A stretch of DNA of 64,000 nt from a virus (lineage: Duplodnaviria; Caudoviricetes). The position numbers and the translations under genes were made by a program. Positions 36,153 to 56,446 of this stretch are shown one piece after another. The notes below the pieces were generated by a model, which worked only from the letters and a program-made list of their open reading frames with translations, ran no database searches and was not told the origin of the DNA. The stretch covers positions 23,452 to 87,451 of IMG/VR virus record IMGVR_UViG_2871875081_000002; one strand, written 5' to 3'. Position 1 is the stretch's first letter, and the number at the start of each line of letters is the position of its first letter.

Positions 36153-36250
36153 AATTAATGTTCACAGATTCTTTCTGCTGAGCATAATTCAAATTATTTT
36201 GGTTAACTAAGAGGGGCAGTGTCTTCACAGATACTGCCCCTCGCTTTTTA
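36153..36250 (+). ncRNA. Candidate small RNA (~95 nt)
   Basis: TACCTTTG at 36140-36147 (and TAACTTTG at 36105-36112), no ORF longer than 7 codons, terminator at 36211-36250. Confidence 0.4.
36211..36250 (+). terminator. Intrinsic terminator
   Basis: GAGGGGCAGT...ACTGCCCCTC-gc-TTTTT. Confidence 0.75.
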
Positions 36251-41705: not shown

Positions 41706-41803
41706 ATAAACACTCAATTTTTTACTGGTTGTTTGGTACGTAGTTTGCTATTAGATAGGTAACTAACATATGTTAGTTATAATATATTAAACAATAAATA
41801 GTT

Positions 41804-42333: not shown

Positions 42334-43010
42334 AGATAGCTAGAGAAAAATCTAGCTATCTAGTTTTCCCACCGACTAACTAGCAGTTAGCCAGTGGGAA
42401 ATTTTACTCCAGGTTTTTCAACTTGGAGCGGGTCGTCGTGTCCTTATTTTTCCCACACAATTTTGGAAACCTTGTCGTGGTGTGTGGGCTTAACTCAGAG
42501 AGAGAATTTATTCTCCCTCAGGGGACTAATTGCCAAAATCCAAGAGAAGTATCTCAGTAAATCGAGAGTGCGAGAGGCACACCGAGATGGGAGAGAGTAA
42601 CGTGTTACTCAGAGACATCCATCCGAGAGATACGCAAAAATTCCTGGCGTGAGCGTCGAATGAGATGAGACGGCACGACGGCTAGGGGATTTGTATCATC
42701 TAGCGAGATGAGAGTTTTAGAAAGAAATCATAATTCATATTCTACCGGTTTGGAATTGTCCGGTCGGGCTGGTTACCCGAGAATCAATTGTGTGTGCAAT
42801 CACGATTGCAGCGTTCAAGGTACACACTATCCACGCTGACTGAAATCGGTTGCTTGTCATCCGTGCGAGATTTATCTCCTCAGAAATAAACAAGCTGCTG
42901 GCAGAAGCATAAAATCTGTAGGGTGTGAGCCACGTAGTTAAGACGATAAAGATAAAACGTGGTGCAAAGATGCACATCCTGGCTAACGGGGCGGGGAGAA
43001 ATCTCCGCTC
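42334..43010 (+). ncRNA. Candidate large structured ncRNA (~650 nt)
   Basis: More than 12 hand-identified helices, including a long-range 11-bp pair 42432-42442/42672-42682; no credible ORF. Strand assumed from neighbours. Confidence 0.55.
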
Positions 43011-43039
43011 TACAATTACAAACCATTTATATTAGAATT

Positions 43040-43198
43040 ATGAAACAGAGAATCAAGGAATTTTGCGATAAGTACATGTGGTTTATCTTGCCTGCTTGCA
43101 GCGTTCTAGCTATAATGCTGGGTGTTGTTTTGGAGAAGCATTTTCCACTGAGTGAAATTCTGTATCCTAATCTCCCTACGCTTGTAGGGAACGAATAA
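43040..43198 (+). CDS. Small membrane protein (52 aa)
   Basis: MKQRIKEFCDKYMWFILPACSVLAIMLGVVL; array-type start context. Confidence 0.65.
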   Translation: MKQRIKEFCDKYMWFILPACSVLAIMLGVVLEKHFPLSEILYPNLPTLVGNE

Positions 43199-43215
43199 CC
43201 AAAAATATTAGAATT

Positions 43216-43350
43216 ATGAGTACGCTGAGAATTAAATGCCTCGATATGTGCGAGGTTGAGAGTATCATTGCAGATGCTCAGGAGATTTTGAGTCACGTAG
43301 AATTCGGGTCGTTAAAGAATGGTGTGCTTACATTATTCTGCGTGGCGTGA
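43216..43350 (+). CDS. Small hypothetical protein (44 aa)
   Basis: MSTLRIKCLDMCEVE...; the stop TGA is part of the junction box. Confidence 0.65.
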   Translation: MSTLRIKCLDMCEVESIIADAQEILSHVEFGSLKNGVLTLFCVA

Positions 43351-43368
43351 GCCTAAAAATCTGTAGCC

Positions 43369-43735
43369 AGTACGATAATTGTCGTGCGTGGCTACGGAGC
43401 AATTACCAATAAAATTAGAATTATGAGAGCAAGAAACATCATTTATTCAAGTACGATAATTGTGCTTGGATTTATTCAGAGTGCGCCGGCATTCATTTGC
43501 TTGGCAAGTACGATAATTCTCCTGAATGTGCTTGGAATTTTTTATGGGATTCTGCTTGTGCATATTTGGAGCAGTACGAAAAAGGGCAAGTGGTATTTCC
43601 GCGAGCTGTGGCGATCTACACTCCGCTTGGAGAATTTCATCCTTCCTGGAGTTTAAGAGATTTGGAAAGTACGATAATTGTGCTTGGAAACATTTAGCTA
43701 AATTCTGCTTGGAGAAATCTAGGCAGTACGATAAT
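43369..43735 (+). repeat. Cluster of AGTACGATAAT(TGTGCTTGGA) repeats
   Basis: Copies at 43369, 43450, 43507, 43668 and 43725; another at 45528. Confidence 0.8.
43423..43656 (+). CDS. Small membrane protein (77 aa)
   Basis: MRARNIIYSSTIIVLG...; two hydrophobic segments. Confidence 0.6.
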   Translation: MRARNIIYSSTIIVLGFIQSAPAFICLASTIILLNVLGIFYGILLVHIWSSTKKGKWYFRELWRSTLRLENFILPGV

Positions 43736-43758
43736 ATAACCAATTAAGCAAAAGAATT

Positions 43759-43968
43759 ATGGAAAAGAGAATCAGCAAGGGCGTGCTGTCAGCTGCGCTC
43801 ATATTAGTTACAAGTTTCGTGTGTGGCATTATTGCTATCGCAGGATTTCTGCTTGGAGATTTTCAAGCAGTGTTATATTCTGCGGTTCTTGAAATGTGCG
43901 GTCTATTTATAATTGCGATAATGATAGACACAATTCAGTCACAGATAGATGATATCTGTGAAATGTAG
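43759..43968 (+). CDS. Small two-TM membrane protein
   Basis: 69 aa, hydrophobic. Confidence 0.7.
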   Translation: MEKRISKGVLSAALILVTSFVCGIIAIAGFLLGDFQAVLYSAVLEMCGLFIIAIMIDTIQSQIDDICEM

Positions 43969-44031
43969 CCAAAACTACCGCTTGGAGATATTCGGGCGGT
44001 ATCTAGTATTAACCAATTAAATTACAGAATT

Positions 44032-44229
44032 ATGAAGAAGAATATTTTCGTGGCATTGTTTGCCGTAGTGTGTATTGCATTAGTAATGGTTTCAGTTACT
44101 CTCGTGAATTGTCACAGGGCGAACGTTATGCTGAGGAAAACGGTGTTAGCTCAGGCTAACGAGATTTCAGAGCTGAACGGCTATCACACATCAGAGGGAA
44201 CTACGATGTTCGTAGGTCTCAGAAAGTAG
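44032..44229 (+). CDS. Small membrane-anchored protein
   Basis: 65 aa with N-terminal hydrophobic helix. Confidence 0.7.
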   Translation: MKKNIFVALFAVVCIALVMVSVTLVNCHRANVMLRKTVLAQANEISELNGYHTSEGTTMFVGLRK

Positions 44230-44284
44230 CCAAATCTGAGAGGAGTTTCCGCTCCTCTCTTCTATTAACCAAAATATTAAGAAT

Positions 44285-44617
44285 ATGTACAAGACGATAA
44301 CAAAGGAATTAAGCAAGTGTGAGTTAATTGATATCATGATGGGCATGGACTGCGAGGAAGATATGTGTACACACACATCTATCCAGAGAGTTCTATGTCC
44401 TATACAGGCGTGCGATGAGTTCGGCGGCGATCCTGAGGATTCTCGTCCTCTGCTGCCGGGAACATACCTGGCAGTATATCATGACAAGATGGAGGATGAG
44501 CCGTTTCCTATGTTCGCAAAGATTTGCGCCAACATCATTACAGATGAGAACAAATGTCAGATGCTCATGAACGGAGACGGCTGTATTCTGATTTTCCTGC
44601 TCAACAAGTACGAGTAG
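44285..44617 (+). CDS. Hypothetical protein
   Basis: 110 aa flanked by junction elements. Confidence 0.75.
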   Translation: MYKTITKELSKCELIDIMMGMDCEEDMCTHTSIQRVLCPIQACDEFGGDPEDSRPLLPGTYLAVYHDKMEDEPFPMFAKICANIITDENKCQMLMNGDGCILIFLLNKYE

Positions 44618-44679
44618 CCAAAAATGTGCTCAGGCATTTTCCTGGGCATACTATGTAGAACCATTAAACAAATTGAATT

Positions 44680-44856
44680 ATGTTAGATAAGAAATCACAG
44701 AAGAATTTTGAGCGTGCGCTTATGCATGAGATGGAGAAGATCAAGATTGCTGCACGCCAGTGGCACAATAATAACACCAGAGGCTACAGAGATTATCGTA
44801 GCAAGAAAACTATCTCCAAGAGTTTCTCTGAGATTGCGGTATTGTGCATGAGCTAA
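44680..44856 (+). CDS. Small basic protein (58 aa)
   Basis: MLDKKSQKNFERALMHE...; below track cutoff, junction-flanked. Confidence 0.65.
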   Translation: MLDKKSQKNFERALMHEMEKIKIAARQWHNNNTRGYRDYRSKKTISKSFSEIAVLCMS

Positions 44857-44904
44857 ATGTGCGTGACGATTGTCACGCATACTATTCACCAATATTTAAG
44901 AATT

Positions 44905-45195
44905 ATGATAGATGAAGAATACAAGGAGAATGTAGAGTACATACTCTCTACGATTTTGCCTAAGTTGCAGGAGATTCAGAGAGAAGTATTGAAAAATCAA
45001 TCAAGACTGAGCCTTGATGTTAGCGTTAGCAATAAAAACGGCGAAGGGTATATAAGTTGTTTTGCCTGTGTCATGAATGACATGGGAGAAATAACGGATA
45101 CTTGTTTCCCACGTTTCATCTGCGTATGCAGCAAAGAGGAGATTGACGAGCGGCTTAACGAACTTAAAGAGTTCATCAAGAAGTACCTAGCTTAA
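44905..45195 (+). CDS. Hypothetical protein (96 aa)
   Basis: Start MIDEEYKE after AGAATT. Confidence 0.75.
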   Translation: MIDEEYKENVEYILSTILPKLQEIQREVLKNQSRLSLDVSVSNKNGEGYISCFACVMNDMGEITDTCFPRFICVCSKEEIDERLNELKEFIKKYLA

Positions 45196-45244
45196 AATTG
45201 AGGGAGTTTTATCTCCCTCTCCTATAAACCAAAAATGTAGAATT

Positions 45245-45514
45245 ATGAGCAAATGGGTACAATTCTATCACAAGATTAATAAGTTTGACCTTGTGAACAT
45301 GAGATTTACGGATGATTTCAGTATCGTGGAAATGGTTGGCATGGATTCTATTATGCCTATTGACGGTAGACTTAATCTGTCATCCATACGTGCTGAGATA
45401 CAGAAGAAAATAGAGAGCATGAAGAAAATCGAGAGTTTCGACCCTTGTGCATTCTCCATCCTCACCGGTCCTACGATTCTGTGTGCTTCAGAAAGTCCGG
45501 TGTACAATCTCTGA
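45245..45514 (+). CDS. Hypothetical protein
   Basis: 89 aa, junction-flanked. Confidence 0.75.
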   Translation: MSKWVQFYHKINKFDLVNMRFTDDFSIVEMVGMDSIMPIDGRLNLSSIRAEIQKKIESMKKIESFDPCAFSILTGPTILCASESPVYNL

Positions 45515-45573
45515 GCCAGAACTGGGCAGTACGATAATGTGCTGCCTGCTATTAACCAATAAAATTCAGAATT

Positions 45574-45750
45574 ATGACAGACGGAGACAGAAAGTTCCTT
45601 GCCAGGCTCGTCGCGAGTCACAAGGCAGTTATCAGCGAGGAGTGCAGACGCAAGAACCTCGACAAGAGCGAGTATTTCAGACGCGTAGCACGTGCAGACA
45701 AGAAGGCTCAGGAGATTGAGCAATCGTGCATGCGACCTCGCAAGTTCTAG
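45574..45750 (+). CDS. Small basic protein (58 aa)
   Basis: MTDGDRKFLARLVASHK...; junction-flanked. Confidence 0.65.
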   Translation: MTDGDRKFLARLVASHKAVISEECRRKNLDKSEYFRRVARADKKAQEIEQSCMRPRKF

Positions 45751-45812
45751 CCAAACATTCTGTGCAGATAGGCTGCACAGAAACCATGTTAAACCATCAA
45801 AATTAAAGAATT

Positions 45813-46028
45813 ATGGAGAAAATGACACAGAAAGAGTTGAAAAGACTCGTTAGAGTAGGAGCTGCCAAGGATATAACAGACAGCTCAAGTCGTAACGATA
45901 TCCCTGAAAGATATAGCCAAGTAGGCTACTCTTCTGGAATATACGGATGCAACGGAATGTTGCTTCGTGGCGAGAGCGGTCAGCTGTACGCTGTCTGCGC
46001 AAGAACTACGGCTATCTGGGTTTTCTAG
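45813..46028 (+). CDS. Hypothetical protein
   Basis: 71 aa with GYSSGIYGCNG motif. Confidence 0.75.
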   Translation: MEKMTQKELKRLVRVGAAKDITDSSSRNDIPERYSQVGYSSGIYGCNGMLLRGESGQLYAVCARTTAIWVF

Positions 46029-46092
46029 TCAAAAACACGGGTAAGTGTTTGGTGCGCTTACTCGTTTCTATCATCAACCAAAATACAGAAAT

Positions 46093-46554
46093 ATGAATAT
46101 ACAGAAAGTATGGGATGCGTTTATCAAGGAAAATGATAATCCATCATTCGTAAAGATGGCATATGCCGTAGTAGAGCAGCTTGGCGGTGTTAATGAAGAC
46201 ACACTGCTTAATTCTCTCGATAGTTGCAGAAATGCAAATGACGGGTACACTGGATTCTGTTATCCTTATCAGACAAGCAAGTTCTGGAACGAGAACAAGA
46301 GTGCTATCATGGAGAATATGCACGAGCTTGCCGATGATTTGGGTGAAGACCTTATCACGATGATTAAGGGCTTCGGGAATTTCAAGGACGACAAATCTGT
46401 CACCTATGATGCTATCGGCAAGGCTCTGTATGCTCCTTTTAACGAGGGCGAGAGCAGATACATCTACGACACATTTGCAAAGTATGCACTGGAAGAGGTT
46501 GCGAATCGATTCCAGGACTGGTGGTACGGCCAGGACGAAAGTGAGTTCGATTAG
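46093..46554 (+). CDS. Acidic helical protein (possible Ocr-like DNA mimic)
   Basis: Start MNIQKVW; GYTGFCYPYQTSKFW motif; acidic tail. The function is a guess. Confidence 0.7.
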   Translation: MNIQKVWDAFIKENDNPSFVKMAYAVVEQLGGVNEDTLLNSLDSCRNANDGYTGFCYPYQTSKFWNENKSAIMENMHELADDLGEDLITMIKGFGNFKDDKSVTYDAIGKALYAPFNEGESRYIYDTFAKYALEEVANRFQDWWYGQDESEFD

Positions 46555-46612
46555 CCAAACCAATCCTCACTCCCACGGGTGGGGATTTCTATTAACCAAC
46601 AATTACAGAATT

Positions 46613-46852
46613 ATGAGTGATTTAGAGAAAATCCTGAATGACGATTTGCTGAAGTGTAAAATCGTTGAGTCTGTAGAGAATCCTGTTAGGCGTGTGGACC
46701 TCATCAAGTGGACGCACGACAATACATACTCTATTGCAGAGGTACGCAAGGATACCGGTAAGCTAGAGGTCACAGACTTGAAAGCTGCCAGTGGTCTTGA
46801 AGCATACAAGCATTTCTTCAGAAATTATGGAGACATTGCCATATGTGGCTAA
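46613..46852 (+). CDS. Hypothetical protein (79 aa)
   Basis: Start MSDLEKIL after AGAATT. Confidence 0.7.
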   Translation: MSDLEKILNDDLLKCKIVESVENPVRRVDLIKWTHDNTYSIAEVRKDTGKLEVTDLKAASGLEAYKHFFRNYGDIAICG

Positions 46853-46904
46853 AACTCCCCACGATAATGTGGGGAACCATTATGAACCATTAAACAGATG
46901 AATT

Positions 46905-47444
46905 ATGGAAAAGAATATTTGGGAATATGTTATGAACAGCAAGGGTGAGGTTATCGAGAAAGTAGCCGATTATATCGGTGTTGAAAGCTTCGCCAAGGTA
47001 ATCGAGAGCCTATATCGTGAGTGTCTTGAGAATTTCGATGACGCAGATGATTTAGAAGAATACATTGCCGATTTATACGGAAAGAATATCCAGTCTCTTG
47101 CGTGGGAGTTTACTCTAGAGGCAAACAAGGAGATGAAGAAATATCTCCATAAGGATTCTCAGCATATGGATGGCAATTTCGCCAATCTGTACGAGGACTA
47201 CCCTAAGCACAGAACAGGTGTTTGGCGGGCATCAGACTACGATGGCGACGATTACTACGATTTGTATCCTCAGATGGTAGTCAGACTTGATGCCGCAGAG
47301 GACAGCGAACAGGCTAACGAGGATAGAGAATATCTTGAAGAGTGGTATTTCGAAGCCTTCGGTACGTACAACATCAAGTACAATTTCGGCAATTACCTTG
47401 AAGAGGTTCACTCCATGATGGAGGAAGATTATGAGGAAGCCTAA
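46905..47444 (+). CDS. Very acidic protein
   Basis: 179 aa, roughly one quarter Asp/Glu by hand count. Confidence 0.78.
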   Translation: MEKNIWEYVMNSKGEVIEKVADYIGVESFAKVIESLYRECLENFDDADDLEEYIADLYGKNIQSLAWEFTLEANKEMKKYLHKDSQHMDGNFANLYEDYPKHRTGVWRASDYDGDDYYDLYPQMVVRLDAAEDSEQANEDREYLEEWYFEAFGTYNIKYNFGNYLEEVHSMMEEDYEEA

Positions 47445-47498
47445 CAATATCCCCTAGCATGGGGGTATTCAATGTTAAACCATTTAAATGATTAGATT

Positions 47499-47726
47499 AT
47501 GGAATTTAGAAAAGGAATTATCTACGCAGGACTTGTTCCTGTAGTAGGCGGCATGATGTGGGTTTCAATAACGCCAGACGCTTCAGATTCGGTTCATTTC
47601 TGGAAGAAGAAGCAGTGTGAGCAGTATATTCGCAAGAATTTCTCGGGAGAAGAGAAGAAATATCTCCTCTCTCAGCTGAAAGAAGAGAAAAGAAGAGCTA
47701 AGATATACTCATGGGCAAGACTTTAA
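47499..47726 (+). CDS. Hypothetical protein
   Basis: 75 aa. Confidence 0.7.
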   Translation: MEFRKGIIYAGLVPVVGGMMWVSITPDASDSVHFWKKKQCEQYIRKNFSGEEKKYLLSQLKEEKRRAKIYSWARL

Positions 47727-47737
47727 AACATACGATC

Positions 47738-47866
47738 ATGAAGCAGGTAATAGTAAGACTCAAGGGAGATTTCTACAGCATGAATACATATTGTAGTACT
47801 CTGAAGGAATTTTTAGAAAAGAGAAACCTGAAGCGCTCTGATGTTGCAGAGTGGTGGAAGGAGTAG
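47738..47866 (+). CDS. Small protein (42 aa)
   Basis: MKQVIVRLKGDFYSM...; ends in TAGCCTAAC. Confidence 0.6.
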   Translation: MKQVIVRLKGDFYSMNTYCSTLKEFLEKRNLKRSDVAEWWKE

Positions 47867-47920
47867 CCTAACAAGGGGAGCTTGCATGCTCCTCTTCTAT
47901 GAACCAAAATACAGAGAATT

Positions 47921-48178
47921 ATGGAAAGAATTACATTTGTTGAAAAAGGCAGTAGAATAATCTACAGACTTGGCAGACGTATAGTATGCTACAGAGATGG
48001 TTACAGAGTTTATTTCGGTAAGCCATCAGATGTTACACACAACACGTTCGATGCACTATCAGAGAATATAGCACATGAGTATTGCCTGAAAGTTTGTGAG
48101 CATAAAAAGTGGGAGAAAGCAAAGTACAGCAAACCTGTCGCATACAACGCACACAGAGTATTGAACGCATTAGCCTAA
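47921..48178 (+). CDS. Hypothetical protein
   Basis: 85 aa. Confidence 0.72.
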   Translation: MERITFVEKGSRIIYRLGRRIVCYRDGYRVYFGKPSDVTHNTFDALSENIAHEYCLKVCEHKKWEKAKYSKPVAYNAHRVLNALA

Positions 48179-48224
48179 AGATAGCCTCCGGGCTATCACT
48201 ATAACCAATTAAATAAAGAGAATT

Positions 48225-48638
48225 ATGACGAAAGAAGCAAAAAAGGTATTCGATAAGTTTTTCAATATCCATCGTGACAACGTTGCAGGTAAGACTATCT
48301 GCTTTATCTCACGTGGAGAGTGGTCTGATCCTCAGATTGCGTACAAGGGCTATCTCCTTAACTACTGGGATGTGCTAGAGCTGGCGTGTCCTGAAGATGC
48401 GCCGGATGATTACGAACCAGACGAAACAGAATGGTATGACGCTTGTGTGGATTCTCTATTCGGCTACACAGATTGCGGCTTAAAACCTGACAAGTTTGAG
48501 CCATCAGACGCTATGAGCGTGACAGATATCATTAACGGAGGGAGCAATCCCTCTGACATTATTAACCAAATTATTAAAGATTATGAAGAGATATTACGTA
48601 TCAGTCACAGAACATTTGAACAAGGTAGTAAGTGTTGA
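48225..48638 (+). CDS. Acidic hypothetical protein whose C-terminus reads through a junction element
   Basis: 137 aa; overlaps the next gene by 56 bp. Confidence 0.65.
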   Translation: MTKEAKKVFDKFFNIHRDNVAGKTICFISRGEWSDPQIAYKGYLLNYWDVLELACPEDAPDDYEPDETEWYDACVDSLFGYTDCGLKPDKFEPSDAMSVTDIINGGSNPSDIINQIIKDYEEILRISHRTFEQGSKC

Positions 48639-48798
48639 TGCTGAGAGTGAGAATGAAGCCGTACAGAAAGTGCAGGATGCCTATAATAATAGCGATATTA
48701 TTCTCGACTCTGAAAATTTCGCAGGTGAGGTAATTGAGATTGAACCAGACCAGCAGTTCTGCTCTGATTATGATGATTCTTACGAGCACATCGACTAG
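48583..48798 (+). CDS. DpnD/PcfM-like protein
   Basis: YVSVTEHLNKVVSVDAESENEAVQKVQDAY...IILDSENF pattern. Confidence 0.7.
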   Translation: MKRYYVSVTEHLNKVVSVDAESENEAVQKVQDAYNNSDIILDSENFAGEVIEIEPDQQFCSDYDDSYEHID

Positions 48799-48846
48799 CC
48801 AAACGGGGAGAGTAATCTCCCTACCAATAACCAAAACATCATAGAT

Positions 48847-49023
48847 ATGAAGAATTTAGGAATACAGGACATCTGTATGGTTAAGCACGGACTGGCTGCT
48901 TTGATAGCCAACGAGAAGGTCACTCTTAAAATCGCCATCAAGAAAGGCGACAAAGAGCAGATAGAAAGAAGTAACTCATATATTGATGAGGTAAATTCAG
49001 TTATCAAAAAACTAAACTCGTAG
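48847..49023 (+). CDS. Small helical protein (58 aa)
   Basis: MKNLGIQDICMVKHGL... Confidence 0.6.
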   Translation: MKNLGIQDICMVKHGLAALIANEKVTLKIAIKKGDKEQIERSNSYIDEVNSVIKKLNS

Positions 49024-49028
49024 GAATT

Positions 49029-49208
49029 ATGGGGAAAATCAAAGTAGGAATGAGAGTGTATTGTGACATACATTCTCAGTCAAAGGATCACATCGTGACT
49101 CACGTTTCAGAGAAAAGAGGATTCGCGGGAATTGATAACGAATACTGGTGGCCCATAGACCAGTGTTTCCCCTGCGATGAAATAACATTGCCTAAAAAGC
49201 GCAGCTAA
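49029..49208 (+). CDS. Small SH3/KOW-like protein (59 aa)
   Basis: MGKIKVGMRVYCD...YWWPIDQC. Confidence 0.6.
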   Translation: MGKIKVGMRVYCDIHSQSKDHIVTHVSEKRGFAGIDNEYWWPIDQCFPCDEITLPKKRS

Positions 49209-49240
49209 GGACTGCGCGCAATAACCAATACAGTAGAATT

Positions 49241-49693
49241 ATGACATACGACGAGATCATCAATGCAGTTGAGAATGGTGCAAAGTTCACAATCAACTTC
49301 CAGAAGAGAACATGTAGGGTGAATGGTAAGATAGTGATGTCCGAGGAAGATAAGCCGAAAGATACACCTTACCTGACACATGCAGTAGTTCTGTTCGCAA
49401 TAGAACAGAGATATAAGGCATACAAGCATTCTGTGCCATCAGAGCGTTCCGAATCCCATCGCCGCTACTACTTCAAGGCTTTGCCAGAGAAAGAGCTCAC
49501 AGACGAAGATATGATGTATGGTGAGCGACGGGAGGTAGCGAGATGCAAGCTAGAACTATACGTCCTTATGCAGCTGCTTAGAGGAAACCTTGCATGGGAG
49601 AACAGATGGGGAAGATGGTTCTGGAAGTCCGAGAACGACAAGGACCTGATTATCCTCAGAGACTGGGTTGAGCCAAACAAGGGTGGGGCGTAA
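49241..49693 (+). CDS. Hypothetical protein
   Basis: 150 aa. Confidence 0.78.
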   Translation: MTYDEIINAVENGAKFTINFQKRTCRVNGKIVMSEEDKPKDTPYLTHAVVLFAIEQRYKAYKHSVPSERSESHRRYYFKALPEKELTDEDMMYGERREVARCKLELYVLMQLLRGNLAWENRWGRWFWKSENDKDLIILRDWVEPNKGGA

Positions 49694-49750
49694 GCCTCAT
49701 CCACTAGAGTTAAATAAATTTTTAGTAACCAATTTAAAATAATTAGAATT

Positions 49751-50806
49751 ATGAAGCAGATTGTAACAATCACTGGTGAGAACTTGAACATCGTAACTAA
49801 CAATGTAGAGGCTACAGCAGCTACCGGTAAGAAGACCAAGGCGCAGATGCGACTCGAAGCTCTTAAGGCAGCAGGTGTTGATACTAGTAAATATTTCCCT
49901 CTCGGTGACGACCAGCTTATCAAAATCGAAAATGGCGCAGCAGTTCCTGTAGACATGGACGATGCAACCATCGATGCGGTAGGCAAGCAGATTGTCGAGG
50001 GTGGATACGTAAGTAACTGGAAGCTCTTCCGTCGTTGGGTGATGAGTCAGATGTTCCACATGTTGCGAGACATGGATAAGAACGGACGCACATTCAACGA
50101 GGTGTTGCAGCACAAGGGCTACGAGTATCAGTGGCGCATGTTGGAGAACGAGCTGTATGCTCAGATGAAGATGTGTGACCACAAGGACTACGAGAACACC
50201 AAGGCGAGAAATCGCTGGTTCAACGGCTGCGTAGCACACGATATGGCTATTGACTATATTAACAAGCTTCGCAGCTACATTGACGACAAGTGCATCTACA
50301 CTACCAAGAAAGACAAGGATGGAAACGAGAAGAAGACATACAAGCATACCTGCAAGGGTAATCCTTATATCCGTCTTCAGAACGAGGACATTTTTGTCGC
50401 AGACTTGGAGAAAAAGGTCTATACTCCTCTCCGTAACCTTGCCAACAAAATGGGTGCTGCAACGACCTACAAGGAGCTCTACGATGCAGTTCGCGAGTTC
50501 AACAAGAACCGCAAGCATCTCGCATGGGATACCAAGCAGGCAGATGCATTCATTCATGCTTACAAAGGGTCTGGTTCCTACTACACGATGAGAAACCTCA
50601 TCATGTTCCATGGAGCAAGATTCATGAAGAACGGACGAAAGATGTCAGAGGCTAATTCTCTGAAGGAACTTGAGTCTAAAGCCAAGCTCTACGATGAAGA
50701 GGGTTGGAAGATGCTCGGTGTACTCAAGCAGCTTATCAAGGACAATAATATAAGCGTACAGGGCAAGATTCTTGAATGGAAGAAAGCCAAGAGCGAGAAC
50801 AAGTAA
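49751..50806 (+). CDS. Hypothetical protein
   Basis: 351-aa ORF with strong coding-like composition. Confidence 0.85.
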   Translation: MKQIVTITGENLNIVTNNVEATAATGKKTKAQMRLEALKAAGVDTSKYFPLGDDQLIKIENGAAVPVDMDDATIDAVGKQIVEGGYVSNWKLFRRWVMSQMFHMLRDMDKNGRTFNEVLQHKGYEYQWRMLENELYAQMKMCDHKDYENTKARNRWFNGCVAHDMAIDYINKLRSYIDDKCIYTTKKDKDGNEKKTYKHTCKGNPYIRLQNEDIFVADLEKKVYTPLRNLANKMGAATTYKELYDAVREFNKNRKHLAWDTKQADAFIHAYKGSGSYYTMRNLIMFHGARFMKNGRKMSEANSLKELESKAKLYDEEGWKMLGVLKQLIKDNNISVQGKILEWKKAKSENK

Positions 50807-50838
50807 TCATCAGTAAGACGTAAGGTTCGCCGCCTGAA

Positions 50839-50976
50839 GAATGGTGGCCCGGCAGCTATGTGTTTACAAGAGCTTCTTCAACGAAGGATCTCCTCCAGTC
50901 ACTACTGGAGGTAATCCTTCGAGCTAAAGCTCTCTAGATCGAACTTATAGAGTAAGGCGCCAGCCGGGAGCCATTC
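50839..50976 (+). ncRNA. Candidate structured RNA element (three-way junction)
   Basis: Six nested helices identified by hand in a non-coding gap. Confidence 0.5.
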
Positions 50977-51040
50977 TAGCCAAAAGTCGGTTACTTATTC
51001 GGTAACCGATTCAATGTTTAACCAAATAAAATGAGGAATT

Positions 51041-51463
51041 ATGAAGAAAATCAAGAAGATAATCTATGTAGACAAGCTTACTCCAGCACCCCTTGACAAC
51101 AAGAATGTCATGCTGGACTGGTGGGAAGAGAATATGTTCGACGACGGAAGCTACGCATTCTCAGGTAATACGTATCTAGGATTCATTGCCGGTGTTCCGG
51201 TAATGGCCACAGTCAAGAGCAATGTTGTCGAGCTGAAATGTATCCCGCAGCCCTACAGAAGCACGGACAAGCTTGATGATTTCGGAAATGCAGTCATAAA
51301 AAACTTGACTGAAGACGAATGTCACCTAACGACCTACATGGTTCCGGCGTACAAGCAGTACATAGATGACGAGCGTGAGGGAGACGCAAAACTACTAATA
51401 TCGTTCTCCATCTACGAAGACGAAGCGACGATTTCATTCCATTGGAACATACCGAAAGATTAG
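51041..51463 (+). CDS. Hypothetical protein
   Basis: 140 aa. Confidence 0.78.
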   Translation: MKKIKKIIYVDKLTPAPLDNKNVMLDWWEENMFDDGSYAFSGNTYLGFIAGVPVMATVKSNVVELKCIPQPYRSTDKLDDFGNAVIKNLTEDECHLTTYMVPAYKQYIDDEREGDAKLLISFSIYEDEATISFHWNIPKD

Positions 51464-51596
51464 CCAAACATGTCAGTCGTTAACAGCGGCTGACTACTCA
51501 TATCATAACTAAATTTTGTTTAAATGGTTCAAAGCCGGTCTGTCGTGAGACACGCCGGTTTTTTGTTCCCAAAGTTTAACCAATTAAATTAGAATT

Positions 51597-52301
51597 ATGA
51601 GTAGAAATTACTGGACATTAGGTAAGGAAGGAATGAAGACTCGTCTGTCAAAGGCACAGGCAGCTTATGAGAACGCAGTAGAGAACGTCAGCGACTTGCA
51701 TGTCAAGATCAGTGATGGCAACACAAAATTGGGAGCTATCCCATCCGTGTCGCTCATCCCGGTCATGGATTGCGGTAACTGTGCAATATGCGCCAAGAGC
51801 TGCTACGACCTCCGCAACGACTTCATCTATAAAGAGGTTATCAAGACGAGAGCTATCAACTCTGCCATCCTCCACGAGGATCCTGAGCGATACTTCAAGG
51901 AGATTGACGGATATCTTGACTACAGATTCCCTCGTGCATTCCGATTCCACATCGGCGGCGACATACAGGACAAATGGCATCTTGATAAGATGTGCGAGAT
52001 TGCTCGCAAGCATAAGGATACCAAGTTCCTGGCGTTCACGAAGATGTTCGATGTGTGTAACGAGTACCTTGATGAAGGAAACGTCATTCCTGAGAACATG
52101 CACATCCTATTCAGCGGATGGCTTGGTCTCAAGATGGATAACCGCCACGGATTTCCGGAGGCGCATCCTATCTTCGAGAGCGGAACGTCTGCTCCGGAAG
52201 GAACACGTCTATGTACCGGAAACTGCACAGAGTGTCTGAAGGAAGATAGGTTGTGCTGGTCTATCGGGAAAGGACAGGCGGTAGGATTCCTCGCACACTA
52301 G
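51597..52301 (+). CDS. Gp88-like Cys-rich phage protein (radical SAM-like)
   Basis: GNTKLG...SL...CxxCxxCxxxCY...FRFHIGGD...FLAFTK. Confidence 0.75.
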   Translation: MSRNYWTLGKEGMKTRLSKAQAAYENAVENVSDLHVKISDGNTKLGAIPSVSLIPVMDCGNCAICAKSCYDLRNDFIYKEVIKTRAINSAILHEDPERYFKEIDGYLDYRFPRAFRFHIGGDIQDKWHLDKMCEIARKHKDTKFLAFTKMFDVCNEYLDEGNVIPENMHILFSGWLGLKMDNRHGFPEAHPIFESGTSAPEGTRLCTGNCTECLKEDRLCWSIGKGQAVGFLAH

Positions 52302-52361
52302 CCAAAATCCTCGTCAGGAATGACGGGGTACATTATGTCTAACCAATTAAAATTTTGAATT

Positions 52362-52796
52362 ATGGCAACAGCAAGAAGAGGTACAAGAATGCTCAAAGCT
52401 TCTGACATCATGAAGAGAAAGGGCATTGTCCAGAAACAGATGGACATGGACAAGTTCAACGAGGTTGTAGAGAATTTCTTTATGACCCATGAGCCTAAGG
52501 AAACGATTCTCCTAACTCCGAAGAGATTCATCGAGATGGATAACCCGCCAGAGGGAGACTTCATTGACTATCTCGATGTCAGCGTTTGGGAGAAGAAGAG
52601 TGAGGACCCGGATGACCCGTTCGACTTCATAGACTATCAGTTCATGAAGAAGAACGGTATGCTCCGTCCTATCCTTATGGTGAACGAGCCTTTCATCGGC
52701 AATGCTGCCGGGTGGCTGAGAGATTTTTGTGGATTCACTGTGAAGAGCAGAACACGAAAGAAGAAGAAGGAATACATCGTGTCTCTGCCGGTGTAA
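52362..52796 (+). CDS. Hypothetical protein
   Basis: 144 aa. Confidence 0.75.
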   Translation: MATARRGTRMLKASDIMKRKGIVQKQMDMDKFNEVVENFFMTHEPKETILLTPKRFIEMDNPPEGDFIDYLDVSVWEKKSEDPDDPFDFIDYQFMKKNGMLRPILMVNEPFIGNAAGWLRDFCGFTVKSRTRKKKKEYIVSLPV

Positions 52797-52855
52797 AGCC
52801 GAACAAGGCGTGGAACAATCCGTTTCACGCTCCTAGTATTAACCAATTAAAATTT

Positions 52856-53455
52856 ATGAATATGACTGATATTGAAAGAGTAAAGAGATTCGCATCCGAG
52901 AATGATTACCCAGGTGAGACATTGGACACAATCAACTGCTTCCGCAGACACAGTAAGACTCCAAAGGAAGACCTCGACAGCCTGGATAAGGCAACCGATG
53001 AGGACTGGCTAGGTCTTATAGATGAGTACGAGGGCAATGGAATCAACTGGAAGGGAGAGTTCTCGGACGTTAACGGAAACAGCGTAACGCTAGGCGACAA
53101 GGTTATGTGGAACAATCCGGATCCTGATGATTTCGCTAAGTGGTACGAGAATTTCAAGATATGCACCGTAGAAGATATATCAGGAGACCGAATATCACTC
53201 AAGGACGATGACGGAGATACGTTCGATGTAACCGAGGATGAATGTACTTTAGTTCGAAAGCCTGACTACAAGCTATATGAGGACGAGAAGTATCACTATG
53301 GAGTGTGTGGAATGCTCCAGGATATCGAGAATGCCCGCACAATGACGAGCTATATCCATGATGACGACCTCAGATGGAAGCTTGATGCTGCGTGCAGATG
53401 GTTCAAGGAACACATTGAGGCTGAGATTGCCAATCACATCGTAGAGAACCAGTAA
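52856..53455 (+). CDS. Acidic hypothetical protein with SH3/KOW-like segment
   Basis: Likely start MNMTDIE at 52856; DVNGNSVTLGDKV. Confidence 0.75.
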   Translation: MNMTDIERVKRFASENDYPGETLDTINCFRRHSKTPKEDLDSLDKATDEDWLGLIDEYEGNGINWKGEFSDVNGNSVTLGDKVMWNNPDPDDFAKWYENFKICTVEDISGDRISLKDDDGDTFDVTEDECTLVRKPDYKLYEDEKYHYGVCGMLQDIENARTMTSYIHDDDLRWKLDAACRWFKEHIEAEIANHIVENQ

Positions 53456-53511
53456 TCCAAACAAGCCTGCCAGGAACGGCGGGCATCAAGTTAAACCAAA
53501 ATATTAAGATT

Positions 53512-53832
53512 ATGGATAGAAAAGTATTGAAAGACAAGATTGATGAGTTGCGTTCAACAGCAAAGATGGAGCTTGCATGCACCATCCGTGAGATAATGAG
53601 AGAGCACGGAATCCTCAGCAAAGAGCTGAAGCATCCGGTTATGTGCAGCGACAAAATATTCGAAGCTGTCCTCATTGAAATTAATGACGAGGACACCTCC
53701 ATCCCGGCTATCACGCTCCGTGTAATGAGCTACAAAAGAGTGGCGAAGAGAGTGTCCTCTACGGATTTCGAGATGGATATCGAGTCGCTCGCCCGTATTG
53801 CTTACGGGCTAAACGATGAGTTCGAAAGTTAA
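53512..53832 (+). CDS. Hypothetical protein
   Basis: 106 aa. Confidence 0.75.
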   Translation: MDRKVLKDKIDELRSTAKMELACTIREIMREHGILSKELKHPVMCSDKIFEAVLIEINDEDTSIPAITLRVMSYKRVAKRVSSTDFEMDIESLARIAYGLNDEFES

Positions 53833-53881
53833 TTTAGCGTTAAAAACGGCAAAGATGATGGTTTATATTATAAACTTTTCG

Positions 53882-53889
53882 TATCTTTG
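53882..53889 (+). promoter_or_regulatory. -7 promoter element (TATCTTTG) for the internal recombinase
   Basis: 27 bp upstream of the ATG at 53916. Confidence 0.55.
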
Positions 53890-53915
53890 CCACTAGTAAC
53901 CAAAATATTAGAATT

Positions 53916-54935
53916 ATGACAGAAGAAATAAGAATCAAGACAAGAGATTGGGAGAGACTTCTGAGCTACACTCAGCAGCAGAAGTACAAGACTGCCATCA
54001 AGCAGGGTTGGTTCGCCAATTATCACAGCAACGCCTGGAGGCATGACACGTTCTATGGCGCATACATCTGGAAATACCCGAAGCTTATTAAGGTTGTAAG
54101 GATGTTCGAAGAGATGCTTGGACATAAGCCATTATGGGAAGACATCACCGACGACAATCTGCGCGACCTCTTCGAGAAGATCCAGGAGAACTACGCTCCT
54201 AACTCGGCAAGAACCGTATGCGCAACCATCAAGGCTGTGATACGTGAGAACGATGCTACCAGGGAAATTCCTAGTCCTACGTTCGGCAGAATACTTAGAG
54301 CGAAGGCTGTACCGGTCCAGTCTGTATATCTCTCTGATGAGGAGATAAACAGAATCATAAAGTACAACCCTCACGGGAAAACAAAAAGATATGTTCAGAG
54401 AATGTTTATCATGGAATGTCTCTGTGGCGCACGTTACAGCGACTGCCAGAGAATGACGGAAGAGAACATAGATGATACCGGACACTTCCTCGTCTATGTT
54501 ACTCAGAAGACAAAGACCGAGGTAAGGGTTCCACTTCACAAGAAGCTCCGTAAGTTCCTCGTATGCGGTACTGGTGACGAGCCTCTTCCGGGTGAGATAG
54601 GTGAAAGGACGTTCAATAGAGCACTCCGCGAAATCTGTCGTGACTGCGGAATAGATACGAATACAAAGGTGTTCAAAGCTGGAAAGGAAGAGACAGGAAA
54701 GAAGTATCGGTTCGTATCATCCCATACGGGCAGACGCTCGTTCGCAACGAATCTCTCAAAGAAGGGAGTACCTCTTGAGCAGATTGCCGTCATGATGGGA
54801 CATACCAGTAACGGTATGCCTAATATACAGATGACACAGCGCTACATTGTCGGTAAGACCGAGATTGACAGCAATACACTGAGATTGTTCGGCGTCTATG
54901 AAGAAGACCTCGATAATGGTCTAGATGAGGATTAA
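53916..54935 (+). CDS. Tyrosine recombinase lacking an obvious arm-binding domain
   Basis: GARYSD (R), QKT (K), HTGRR (HxxR), MMGH (H), QRY (Y); SAM-like core-binding domain. Confidence 0.9.
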   Translation: MTEEIRIKTRDWERLLSYTQQQKYKTAIKQGWFANYHSNAWRHDTFYGAYIWKYPKLIKVVRMFEEMLGHKPLWEDITDDNLRDLFEKIQENYAPNSARTVCATIKAVIRENDATREIPSPTFGRILRAKAVPVQSVYLSDEEINRIIKYNPHGKTKRYVQRMFIMECLCGARYSDCQRMTEENIDDTGHFLVYVTQKTKTEVRVPLHKKLRKFLVCGTGDEPLPGEIGERTFNRALREICRDCGIDTNTKVFKAGKEETGKKYRFVSSHTGRRSFATNLSKKGVPLEQIAVMMGHTSNGMPNIQMTQRYIVGKTEIDSNTLRLFGVYEEDLDNGLDED

Positions 54936-54992
54936 GCTAAAACTGGAGGTGGTTAGCTGCCATCTCCTGCCATTGTTTAACCAATTAAAATA

Positions 54993-55421
54993 ATGAATAT
55001 GGTAGAAGATTATACAGTAGAAGAGTTGAATAAACTCATCAATGAGTGCCGGAAGAAGTACGAAAAGCTAGAAAAGGAGACCGTTATGAAGGCTCTGACT
55101 GGTGAGATTGGCACGAACTCCGCAATGGTGGAAGAGTTGGAGATTCTCAACATCCACTATCACGATGAAATGGATGAGTACGACATCACTGCACCTGACC
55201 TGAATCCAGATCTTATCGAAAACTTCAAGAAGGCAGAGCGTGATGGCAAGAACGTCATCTTCGAGGCACAGGAATATCTTAAGATTCTGGGAATGTGCGA
55301 AGAGATGTTCAACCAGAAGATGTGGGTCAACGAAGATGGCCACATATGCGATGAAGAAGGTAATAGACTTTCCGCCGACAGAGAACATCGTGTTTTCGAA
55401 GTTGTTAAGTGCGGGAAATAA
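54993..55421 (+). CDS. Acidic hypothetical protein
   Basis: 142 aa. Confidence 0.75.
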   Translation: MNMVEDYTVEELNKLINECRKKYEKLEKETVMKALTGEIGTNSAMVEELEILNIHYHDEMDEYDITAPDLNPDLIENFKKAERDGKNVIFEAQEYLKILGMCEEMFNQKMWVNEDGHICDEEGNRLSADREHRVFEVVKCGK

Positions 55422-55587
55422 GATATTTCTAGTTTTTCATAGCTAGATTGTTTAAATGATTGTCCTCTCTTGCCCGTGAGGGTAGGAGGGGATTTTTTAA
55501 AACGGCCCCGATTAGCCAAAAATAGGGAGCTTCGGCTCCTGCAATTATTAACAAAGCCCTATCGCATCACGGTGAAGCGAAAAGAAT

Positions 55588-55746
55588 ATGAGACAAGGTT
55601 TTTATGAGTGCATCGAGCACAATCGCAAGAATAGAAAGAAGGCTATTGATGAAATGCCTTATGCGAGCAAAGTAGTCGCTGTTGTAGGTGGCTATATGGG
55701 TTTCGAGTCTTGGGATGATTACGAAATCTGGAAAAATCAAAAATAA
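55588..55746 (+). CDS. Small protein (52 aa)
   Basis: MRQGFYECIEHNRK...VVGGYMGFESWDDY. Confidence 0.65.
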   Translation: MRQGFYECIEHNRKNRKKAIDEMPYASKVVAVVGGYMGFESWDDYEIWKNQK

Positions 55747-55788
55747 GCAATTACATTCAGCCCTCGCTATCACGGTCAAAGCAATCTT

Positions 55789-56097
55789 ATGATAACAACT
55801 AATATCAAATTCAACCGGGTTGTTGCAAAGGAAAATTTCAACAACAACAGTATCGAAGAACTGAAGAACGCTATTGAGAGAGGCATCCTTAGCGAAACAG
55901 GTCTGATTGTCGCAAGTGACATGAAAAAGGCAAAAGAAATATTGAACCCCGATGGTAGTCTTGAGATACAGAAGACCGTTGCAGGAGAAGCTATTGCCTT
56001 CCTCGCTGATGAGACCGCAGTGTCGGTAAGACTTATCCAATACAACCCTCATGGTCTTTTAAAATTCGTCTACACGATAAAAGCAACGGAAATCTGA
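55789..56097 (+). CDS. Hypothetical protein
   Basis: 102 aa. Confidence 0.72.
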   Translation: MITTNIKFNRVVAKENFNNNSIEELKNAIERGILSETGLIVASDMKKAKEILNPDGSLEIQKTVAGEAIAFLADETAVSVRLIQYNPHGLLKFVYTIKATEI

Positions 56098-56143
56098 TGT
56101 AAAACAACCCTTTAGCCCTCGACATCACGGTAAAGTCAGTAAA

Positions 56144-56446
56144 ATGGAAAATTGTCTTGAAAAAGTTGTAAAAGAGAATGGCAATATAAACTTAAACGAA
56201 TTAAGTTGGAAGCAGGTCGTTGCACTCCTGAACGCCTGGAATTCCAGCTTCGCAAGAAATGAGAACACTTCGTTCTCGGAGATGGTGAAGCGATGTTATA
56301 AATCACGTCCATGGCACGAGAATGCGAATATTATCTATTTGCATCGAGATAACAAGAAAACTACCATCCTCCCTCACGCCTGTTATAACCTCGACGAGGC
56401 AGAGGAAAATATGATATTTAATTTGCTCAAAAAGCAATTAAAGTGA
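56144..56446 (+). CDS. Hypothetical protein
   Basis: 100 aa. Confidence 0.72.
   Translation: MENCLEKVVKENGNINLNELSWKQVVALLNAWNSSFARNENTSFSEMVKRCYKSRPWHENANIIYLHRDNKKTTILPHACYNLDEAEENMIFNLLKKQLK

Follow-up and report, generated by a model that had tools for sequence, protein, structure and literature searches.

A repeated box-hairpin-leader module in a gene array of Segatella copri prophages, a candidate for RNA-level punctuation and recombination linkage

Introduction

Promoter early stem-loops (PeSLs) are known from T4-type phages (RB49/phi1, T4/PST and KVP40/nt-1; Arbiol et al. 2010, PMC2839356; Comeau et al. 2014, PMC4122927), where each of them joins a strong host sigma-70 promoter to a stem-loop that has been shown to terminate (PMC2839356, PMC4122927). 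Start-associated sequences (SAS) and extended start-associated sequences (ESAS) are known from the Cluster K mycobacteriophages (Pope et al. 2011, PMC3203893). The SAS (GGGATAGGAGCCC) holds a Shine-Dalgarno core that pairs with the 16S rRNA, and the ESAS repeats are conserved in sequence and show no RNA covariation (PMC3203893). Here we examine a stretch of 64,000 nucleotides of viral DNA (the window; bases 23452-87451 of the 87,451-bp IMG/VR provirus record IMGVR_UViG_2871875081_000002, which is rated 99% complete; all coordinates below are window positions), in which 30 open reading frames (ORFs) on the + strand form a gene chain from 43040 to 55421. The junctions of this array share a module of three parts: a short box, a hairpin, and a leader that runs into the start codon. 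On balance we favour the reading that the module is an RNA-level gene punctuation, made of a 3' box-hairpin and a Shine-Dalgarno-less leader, which doubles as a recombination linker for slot-wise gene exchange.

Both known systems resemble the module in part. Like the PeSL, it is a composite of a stem-loop and an expression signal that recurs between the small ORFan genes of a non-structural, hyperplastic region (26 junctions with hairpin and leader in 12.5 kb), and in both cases relatives differ by insertions, deletions and replacements whose crossovers fall within the motif at short homology, with no dedicated recombinase. The differences are that no promoter of the host primary sigma factor type (-33/-7) is present here, that the hairpins mostly lack a U-tract, that the conserved part is a Shine-Dalgarno-less translation leader with an extra box 5' of the hairpin, and that the carrier is a temperate Bacteroidota siphovirus and not a virulent myovirus. 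Like the SAS, the leader is a short, asymmetric sequence that many non-structural genes carry a few nucleotides ahead of their ATG, always in one orientation but for a single stray reverse copy, absent from the host genome, sometimes holding the upstream stop codon and often preceded by an inverted repeat. This second likeness is one of kind only: there is no sequence similarity between the two systems, neither a 13-nt consensus with a Shine-Dalgarno core nor conserved 17-bp inverted repeats are found, the leader is nearly free of G and suits host ribosomes that ignore Shine-Dalgarno sequences, and the stems vary in sequence yet always pair, in an RNA-like manner. By these comparisons the PeSLs appear to be the nearest functional analogue and the Cluster K SAS the nearest analogue of the leader. 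The element merges the two ideas, adapts them to a host that does not recognise Shine-Dalgarno sequences, and adds the box as a third part. Our literature searches returned no paper describing a box-hairpin-leader module in Bacteroidota phages. An initial annotation of the window, made from its letters alone, had stated that no earlier description was known; as far as the searches reached, this holds for the sequence family and the host phylum, but not for the kind of element, which the PeSLs (PMC2839356, PMC4122927) and the SAS/ESAS (PMC3203893) already represent.

Integron attC sites and clusters of attC sites lacking an integron integrase (CALIN), including those in phages, also place a structured element at the 3' end of small promoterless genes, with a stop codon near or in the element and with variable gene content. 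Here, however, the inverted R''/R' cores and an IntI are absent, the gene order is fixed, there are multiple crossover points, and it is the sense-strand RNA that folds better, where in attC it is the bottom-strand DNA. Hairpins that stabilise or process polycistronic mRNAs between cistrons are familiar from the RNase III sites of the T7 early region and from repetitive extragenic palindrome (REP)-type 3' stabilisers. The junction hairpins resemble these in being U-tract-free and lying between the cistrons of a long phage early transcript, where they could define stable 3' ends after cleavage; their stems of 6-12 bp are too short for classical RNase III sites, and about 26 copies are each tied to a fixed leader. 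The nut sites of lambda type, of which lambdoid phages have two, consist of boxA and a boxB hairpin. There too, in early transcripts, a small hairpin that often has a GNRA-like loop is preceded at a few nucleotides by a conserved single-stranded box; the array differs in having about 23 box-hairpin units, loops that are not conserved, a box unrelated to boxA, and no N-like protein that could be found.

Results

The gene content of the window is that of a temperate siphovirus. Close kin of a conserved 351-residue gene of the array (49751-50806) lie in Segatella (Prevotella) copri genomes, including the complete chromosome of HDD04 (NZ_CP152484), whose prophage is at about 907-935 kb, and the earlier call of a Bacteroidota temperate phage of Prevotella is therefore correct. 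Twenty-nine of the 30 array genes are headed, directly at the ATG, by AACCAA (or a one-letter variant) followed after 6 to 13 nt by (A)GAATTATG. A hairpin lies 5' of this leader at 26 genes, and at 23 a box of the type AGCC(A/T)AAA stands 0-4 nt before the hairpin, counting the variants GGCTAAA, AGCTAAA, AGCTTAA, AGTCAAA, ATCCAAA, AGCCAGA and AGCCGAA. The array of about 30 genes with about 27 box-hairpin-start junctions that the initial annotation described is thus found again, as are its 10 exact box copies and the three stems that it quoted (at 44860, 45759 and 46856). The box TAGCCAAA has 12 copies in the window, where 2.3 are expected and none of 100 shuffles reaches 12; 10 of them lie on the + strand within 43966-55520. 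Across the 87-kb record, the leader motif forms a cluster on the + strand (43021-53918) with a single stray copy on the - strand (36183-36204). The junctions are compared by regular-expression counts and per-junction folding, as MAFFT cannot register stems of unrelated sequence and length.

The grammar of the module is kept in about 190 related IMG/VR contigs and in S. copri genomes. A pattern scan of IMG/VR gives at least 117 stretches, and the loci listed from it hold 926 same-strand copies versus 5 on the opposite strand. Relatives of the 351-residue protein are present in 189 viral stretches, from which 80 loci of up to 21 kb each were kept. Per locus, the coding strand has 5-29 leader motifs and the other strand 0-1; nearly all loci with a length of at least 12 kb have 18-29 on the coding strand. 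One relative, L213, whose core protein is 59% identical, keeps the full grammar with different stems; where the identity is down to 39-40%, in relatives binned to Alistipes and other Bacteroidales, the module is absent and the genes abut or overlap. The grammar is thus an innovation of one phage lineage, maintained under selection. A megablast of the array against 50,697 GenBank phage records gives no match, and an Rfam search of 38000-64000 at E <= 1 gives no family.

The hairpins have the marks of RNA structure. At 20 junctions the predicted fold of the 5' half has one dominant hairpin, and its z-score relative to dinucleotide shuffles is -2.2 to -5.5. Among 44 non-redundant stems (no shared 9-mer), the sense strand is the stabler one in 33 and the antisense strand in 5 (Wilcoxon p = 1e-6), and 9 of 19 tetraloops are GNRA or UUCG, against 1 in the mirror classes. 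Orthologous hairpins carry 0.21 variant alleles per column in the stems versus 0.47 in the loops, and 11 compensatory versus 5 double-broken pairs. From one junction to the next the stems differ in sequence yet pair, and neither loops nor stems have a sequence in common. In all these respects the junction hairpins look like sense-strand RNA, a signature with which the suggestion of mRNA stabilising or processing sites, one of the two alternatives offered in the initial annotation, agrees.

As for termination, the 8 nt after the stem contain 2.7 T on average, and 5 or more T in 8% of the junction hairpins, so that the earlier statement that U-tracts are lacking is borne out for most of them. 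The junction hairpins do not have the form of a canonical intrinsic terminator, a GC-rich hairpin followed directly by a U-tract; only two clear canonical terminators are found, at 51535-51567 and 55462-55503, both with T6. Canonical terminators are in wide use in Bacteroides (PMC3152330). Since terminators with a T-tract are present here and common in Bacteroides, the junction hairpins without one are unlikely to be operon terminators. The idea that they are unusually poor in U-tracts was dropped, as crudely chosen host hairpins that follow stop codons mostly lack them too (16% versus 8% with at least 5 T).

The box meets the upstream stop codon in four registers (TAG-CCAAA, AGCC-TAA, TAA-GCCAAA and TAAA-GCCAAA), in keeping with the earlier remark that it supplies the stop in different frames. 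It is also present before gene 1, at a place where no ORF ends, in a head sequence that is kept in L213 as well. The box is therefore not simply a stop codon. It is specific to the phage: the coding strand of the array has 1.27 copies per kb and the other strand 0, compared with 0.27 per kb in the host, both strands summed. The box TAGCCAAA and the leader core TAACCAAA are one letter apart, and the hairpin thus lies between near-identical direct repeats.

The leader was profiled by aligning 171 distinct junctions on the ATG (A of ATG = 0). The frequency of A is 0.89 at -3, 0.73 at -4, 0.76 at -6 and 0.63-0.91 at -11 to -14; T reaches 0.99 at -1 and is also found at -2, with G at -5 and C at -17/-16. 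From -24 to -6, G does not exceed 0.08 except at -8, where it is 0.13. For Flavobacterium johnsoniae, whose group initiates without Shine-Dalgarno sequences, ribosome profiling and reporters have shown that A at -3, -6, -12 and -13 together with low structure favours initiation (PMC6847099). The leader has A at these same four positions and low secondary structure: from -20 to +5 the array genes have a predicted unpaired probability of 0.61, against 0.52 in other phage genes (p about 1e-4) and 0.50 in host genes (p about 2e-5). A crude profile of the starts of S. copri itself (277 ORFs) has the same A pattern in weaker form (0.44-0.53 at -14 to -11, 0.50 at -3).

A promoter is harder to place in the junctions. 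The Bacteroidia promoter pair, -33 TTTG and -7 TAnnTTTG, is found in none of them. Only one intergenic TAnnTTTG occurs in the 12.5-kb array, at 53882-53889, within the 3' arm of the hairpin that precedes a tyrosine recombinase gene, and it is kept in L213. Because this -7 box lies directly upstream of a leader, the leader there falls within the 5' untranslated region of the recombinase gene. A scan for promoters of sigma-70 type gives 43 matches, not above the 38.1 of shuffles. The variable spacing between AACCAA and GAATT resembles the spacing of a ribosome site and not that of a two-box promoter. Taken together, the leader fits what would be an optimised Shine-Dalgarno-less translation-initiation region of Bacteroidia, and not a promoter.

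Several other readings of the motif were tried and set aside. A phage sigma factor or RNA polymerase as its reader is ruled out, since a search of the 87-kb record gives no sigma region 2 (Sigma70_r2) and no phage RNA polymerase, and the matches to sigma region 4 (r4_2) are weak and lie outside the array only. TAACCAA as a -35-type element, for a protein with sigma4 and alpha-subunit C-terminal domain (alpha-CTD) likeness, is ruled out on geometry, since only about 18 nt separate AAC from the ATG. An antisense promoter or terminator in the complement of the box (TTTGGCT) is ruled out by an inconsistent -7 TA and by the better folding of the sense strand. A leader that closes all three frames with stops is ruled out as well (14% versus 12% in shuffles).

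The exchange of genes between relatives is considered on 2,840 clustered ORFs from the window and the 80 loci (81 loci). The arrays contain 138 gene families, 8 of which are present in at least 90% of the loci, and the 81 loci have 80 distinct gene strings, with tandem duplicates in 21. Gene order agrees in 31,309 of 31,315 pairwise observations (99.98%), with 6 inconsistent. Genes 22-30, the right third of the array, make up a conserved backbone; the hyperplastic part is the remaining two thirds on the left. The box-hairpin half tracks the upstream gene (median identity 0.90 versus 0.49 background), the leader tracks the downstream gene (0.92 versus 0.77), and the mobile unit is therefore leader-gene-box-hairpin.

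Where two loci share the upstream gene and differ in the downstream one, similarity stops in the leader or in the first four codons in 240 of 316 events; in 27 it stops in coding sequence off the junction, 3 times in the upstream gene and 24 times past the fourth codon of the downstream gene. In 33 clean single-gene insertions or deletions, the two longer junctions combine exactly into the shorter one, a chimera whose parts overlap by a median of 10 nt of microhomology. By sequence, about 19 of these overlaps include the TAACCAA block, 4 the box (e.g., GTAGCCAAAA), 1 TAAAA and 2 AGAATTATG, and 7 are in coding or other sequence; by position class, 17 lie from AACCAA to the ATG, 5 in the hairpin, 2 in the stop or box, 2 between hairpin and AACCAA, and 7 in coding sequence. 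Exact chimeric joints at short overlaps are the product expected of homologous recombination between short repeats. Joints with about 10 nt of microhomology indicate homologous exchange and not capture of the integron type. The initial annotation had taken the junctions for modular exchange sites, which the whole-gene differences and the clean joints in the TAACCAA block or the box support. The comparison of relatives that it proposed comes out in part: gene content varies with breakpoints at the box or leader, but the order is fixed. Its integron-like capture platform fails on this fixed order, on at least two crossover homologies, on the direct-repeat flanks and on the recombinase of the array.

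That recombinase (53916-54935, + strand) is a second tyrosine recombinase, embedded in the array and conserved. Its best matches are generic and of Xer type, all far below their cut-offs, and against the integron-integrase model TIGR02249 it scores 21.8 bits where the cut-off is 265. A host-type -7 box of its own (TATCTTTG), carried by the 3' arm of the hairpin in front of it, may let the recombinase be expressed separately from the array. Upstream of the window, the phage has a recombination module (ORFs 2147-4625 of L238; G000:C1:4000-12000) that consists of a 281-residue ORF, a RecE/YqaJ-type exonuclease, an SSB and a NinB/Orf-like mediator, with a DnaC-like loader after it. Searches with RecT and ERF models gave nothing; the unannotated 281-residue ORF beside the exonuclease may be an annealing protein.

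Discussion

In the reading that we favour, the array of this temperate S. copri siphovirus would be a long set of non-structural operons, presumably early ones, with its cistrons punctuated by a lineage-specific RNA module of two separable halves. The first half would go with the 3' end of each gene and comprise the A-rich box AGCC[A/T]AAA, often with the stop codon, and 0-4 nt later a stable, U-tract-free sense-strand hairpin. Sitting inside long transcripts, this hairpin may act as an intercistronic insulator and 3'-end stabiliser that protects the end after cleavage, or as a weak attenuator, and probably not as a full terminator. The second half would go with the 5' end of the next gene: a near G-free, unstructured standard leader, (T)TAACCAA-N6-13-(A)GAATT-ATG, that we expect to raise translation. 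With its adenines at the positions for Shine-Dalgarno-independent initiation in Bacteroidia, the leader can be viewed as the start-associated sequence of this phage. Because every relative has the same blocks of 7-27 nt, in about 27 copies per genome, these would also provide the short homologies for gene deletion, insertion and slot replacement, probably by the Red-like functions of the phage itself.

Several observations weigh against this reading. Transitions in the orthologous stems are without sense-strand bias, and pair-keeping changes (32) stand against nearly as many pair-breaking ones (27). The CC at -17/-16 and the G at -5 of the leader are not in the host start profile, and the exact leader motif is absent from the 3.86-Mb HDD04 chromosome outside its prophage, all 11 exact matches being inside it. 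The motif is restricted to one gene class and is lacking from the structural genes, as would be expected if a dedicated factor read a class-specific signal. The box is found 5' of none of 165 host hairpins that follow stop codons, and in the favoured reading it is only an A-rich, stop-containing flank. A promoter that drives the array was not located in the search for host-type -33/-7 pairs. Finally, the enrichment of breakpoints at junctions is partly built in, since chimeras inside unrelated genes would be lethal and go unseen.

Several of these points can be accommodated if a phage or host factor binds the box and the leader as one pair of sites, TA[G/A]CCAAA flanking the hairpin, and switches the gene class together. 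Candidates would be a translational repressor similar to RegA, an endonuclease that processes the transcript, or a processive antiterminator that loads at a structured leader ahead of the array (42334-43010). The AGCC, the CC and the G at -5 are conserved beyond what host starts need and are absent from host genes, the box keeps its 0-4 nt from the hairpin in any frame and even before gene 1, and the motif is class-specific. As nearly all of the 30 array proteins are ORFans, a novel factor could be among them. We nevertheless hold such an arrangement to be rather unlikely as the explanation: a candidate protein or RNA was not found, the hairpins offer no shared loop or stem sequence for a protein to read, and the proposal is compatible with RNA-level punctuation and does not exclude it. 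That a dedicated phage factor, whether an ORFan protein or the structured RNA of 42334-43010, reads the TA(G/A)CCAAA blocks and controls translation, processing or read-through across the class is in itself somewhat unlikely. If true, the initiation of Bacteroidia without Shine-Dalgarno sequences would be overlaid by an expression code specific to the phage, through which genes would also become exchangeable from one phage to another.

Another possibility is that the module is a true PeSL equivalent, in which a terminator or attenuator hairpin is followed by a promoter of a phage class with TAACCAA as its -7/-10-like part, so that each gene is its own unit with a very short leader. PeSLs follow such logic (PMC2839356), and the restriction of the motif to one gene class and strand, its absence from the host and the missing ordinary promoter of the array can all be read in this way. 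Gene 25, moreover, starts only 32 nt past a canonical terminator, with the motif nearly the sole conserved sequence between the two, and a protein encoded at 57716-58627, with helix-turn-helix (HTH), sigma4-like and alpha-CTD-like parts, may redirect the host polymerase. What makes this possibility, too, rather unlikely is the anatomy of the leader. It has no likeness to the -33 TTTG / -7 TAnnTTTG pair, its conserved GAATT abuts the ATG, its adenines are at the positions of translation determinants, and its AAC is too near to the ATG to be of -35 type. No sigma region 2 or phage RNA polymerase is there to read it in the record, and at the recombinase gene a canonical -7 box lies directly upstream of it.

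It could also be supposed that the blocks are without any expression role and persist as homologies only, through a concerted evolution in which consensus-bounded cassettes spread between co-infecting phages. The joints do fall in the blocks, tandem duplications occur in 21 of 81 loci, box and leader core differ by a single letter, and the phage has a recombination module of its own. A pure DNA homology, however, would have no need for a leader in fixed register with the ATG with adenines at functional positions, nor for hairpins that vary yet keep their pairing and RNA-type loops, and we regard linkage without expression as improbable.

An integron-like mechanism, in which the hairpins are folded recombination sites and the embedded recombinase moves single-gene cassettes, is very unlikely: its appeal lies in that second conserved tyrosine recombinase, in the highly variable gene content, and in a junction-embedded stop with a 3'-end hairpin kept in structure and not in sequence, as in attC, but cassettes are not seen to be inserted at one end in varying order, the order being collinear in 31,309 of 31,315 observations with joints at two or more different short direct homologies, the flanks CC(A/T)AAA and (CTAT)TAACCAA are direct repeats that are not complementary and do not pair as RYYYAAC ... 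GTTRRRY cores at the base of the fold, the sense and not the bottom strand folds better and has RNA-type tetraloops, the recombinase is no integron-type integrase by its score, and the region is without an Rfam match.

The setting gives the module some practical interest. S. copri, whose ribosomes make no use of Shine-Dalgarno sequences, is among the most abundant bacteria of the human gut, and genetic tools for it are few. A leader that is selected about 27 times per phage genome, in hundreds of prophages, is a natural experiment on strong start sites in this phylum, and its compact consensus can be used as it stands in expression constructs. In a widespread group of S. copri prophages, the array is the accessory region, hyperplastic in its gene content; as almost all of the 30 array proteins searched lack a family match, it is likely to harbour genes for host takeover or anti-defence. 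The junction grammar provides a simple rule to delimit these genes and to trace their exchange slot by slot. The idea behind PeSL and SAS, that expression signals double as recombination linkers, is extended to temperate Bacteroidota phages in a promoter-free version.

Individual junctions of the array

All junctions of the array are on the + strand. Junction 1, the array head (42981-43042), has the box GGCTAA, a hairpin at 42988-43011 (z = -4.46) and the leader AACCAT..GAATTATG in front of gene 1 (43040-43198). Junction 2 (43196-43218) is a leader alone at the start of gene 2, and the stop codon TAA of gene 1 is the TAA of its TAACCAA. Junction 3 (43350-43425) consists of the box AGCCTAA, a long hairpin (z = -5.49) and the leader TACCAA..GAATTATG. 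Box, hairpin and leader follow one another at junction 4 (43696-43761, box AGCTAAA), at junction 5 (43967-44034), where the box AGCCAAA comes with the stop TAG at 43966 and the hairpin has 11 bp, at junction 6 (44228-44287), with the hairpin GAGAGGAG/CTCCTCTC and a leader that ends in GAATATG, and at junction 7 (44616-44682, leader AACCAT..GAATTATG). The box AGCTAAA of junction 8 (44851-44907) contains the stop TAA and is followed by the hairpin TGCGTGAC/GTCACGCA and the leader CACCAA...

The same layout continues with junction 9 (45189-45247; box AGCTTAA, hairpin GAGGGAG/CTCCCTC, leader) and junction 10 (45514-45576; box AGCCAGA, hairpin with a GATAAT loop, leader), whose box and leader are both sites of deletion joints in relatives. 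Next come junction 11 (45749-45815), with a box, the 10-bp hairpin TTCTGTGCAG/CTGCACAGAA and a leader; junction 12 (46027-46095), with the box AGTCAAA, a 12-bp hairpin and a leader ending in GAAATATG; and junction 13 (46553-46615), again with all three parts. At junction 14 (46847-46907), the box GGCTAAA precedes the hairpin TCCCCAC/GTGGGGA and the leader, and at junction 15 (47438-47501) the box AGCCTAA precedes a hairpin and a leader with a AGATTATG end. Gene 16 (47711-47866) overlaps gene 15 and is without the module. The box AGCCTAA returns, with hairpin and leader, at junction 17 (47865-47923) and at junction 18 (48172-48227, hairpin with a UCCG loop).

Junction 19 (48564-48585) is a leader alone, within the 3' end of gene 18, from which a DpnD/PcfM-like gene (48583-48798) starts. 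Junction 20 (48797-48849) has a box, a hairpin and a leader with an AGATATG end. At junction 21 (49010-49031) a degenerate leader (AACTAA..GGAATTATG) lies mostly within gene 20, the intergenic gap being 5 nt. The hairpin of junction 22 (49199-49243) carries the stop TAA in its loop and is followed by a leader, without a box, and junction 23 (49683-49753) has two weak hairpins and the leader of the conserved 351-residue gene.

The remaining junctions lie in the conserved backbone. Junction 24 (50978-51043) has a box, an 11-bp hairpin (z = -4.79) and a leader. In junction 25 (51462-51599), the box and a hairpin (51478-51500) are followed by the hairpin and T6 of the canonical terminator at 51535-51567, and then by the leader of a GP88-family gene. 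Junction 26 (52300-52364) has a box, a hairpin with a GGAA loop and a leader; junction 27 (52797-52864) the box AGCCGAA, a hairpin and a leader with a GAATATG end; junction 28 (53455-53514) the box ATCCAAA, a hairpin and a leader with a AGATTATG end. At junction 29 (53848-53918), a long hairpin with the -7 box in its 3' arm leads to the leader and the start of the recombinase gene. Junction 30 (54935-55001) has the box AGCTAAA, a hairpin and a leader with a GAATATG end, and precedes the last gene of the array (54999-55421). The canonical intrinsic terminator that closes the array (55462-55503, +) has a 14-bp stem and T6. Past it stands an orphan box, TAGCCAAAA, with a UUCG-loop hairpin (55513-55545, +), which is followed by a junction of a second type (ATCACGGT) and not by an AACCAA leader. 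The sole copy outside the array (36183-36246, -), a hairpin with TAACCAA..GAATTATG, lies at the end of a leftward operon and is followed by a 7-codon ORF; it is also present in the HDD04 prophage and is probably a relic.

Of the proteins encoded in the array, 27 of 30 have no family match, the exceptions being DpnD/PcfM, GP88 and the tyrosine recombinase. For the conserved 351-residue gene, searches of Pfam, PHROGs, NCBIfam, PDB sequences and the Atlas gave no function. Between this gene and junction 24 there is a structured, GC-richer non-coding piece of about 170 nt (50807-50977), with no ORF and no Rfam match, and the whole 234-nt spacer 3' of the gene folds at -81.6 kcal/mol. A further repeat, GTACGATAAT, has six exact copies, all on the + strand at 43370-43735 and 45529 and nowhere else in the window; they lie within gene 3, where they encode the S-T-I-I repeats of its small hydrophobic product, and in hairpin loops or spacers of the neighbouring junctions.

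Neighbouring features

The window also contains a 2060-residue tape-measure protein, a 3276-residue tail-fibre protein, a terminase, a portal, a major head protein and a primase, and at its edge an integrase (61070-62236). Between the primase gene (- strand) and a 173-residue gene at 41804 lies a very AT-rich intergenic region of 1.1 kb (40700-41800) with short repeats such as CGGTTTATA and CTGCCAC, which may be an origin or a switch region. The array is preceded by 677 nt of GC-richer non-coding sequence (42334-43010), the last 60 nt of which are junction 1. This piece has neither an Rfam match nor a -7 box, and could be a structured operon leader, e.g., for read-through control.

The HTH/sigma4/alpha-CTD-like protein encoded at 57716-58627 (+) has 303 residues: an N-terminal HTH domain (HTH_17), a segment like sigma-70 region 4, and a C-terminal domain like that of the RNA polymerase alpha-subunit. 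It is conserved in most relatives.

In a distant contig from an Alistipes metagenome-assembled genome (L214, about 4000-14700), which is without the module, several genes are headed by TAAACAAC directly past the upstream stop. This is a different short A/C-rich leader with an embedded stop codon.

Right after the array terminator (55550-56150), three genes have the second junction type, AGCCCT-n-ATCACGGTnAAG-n-ATG. Its motifs, at 55566, 55769 and 56124, form a small covarying stem around a conserved loop. Of the 80 related loci, 61 have one to four such junctions, without exception on the coding strand, and here too the genes vary strongly.

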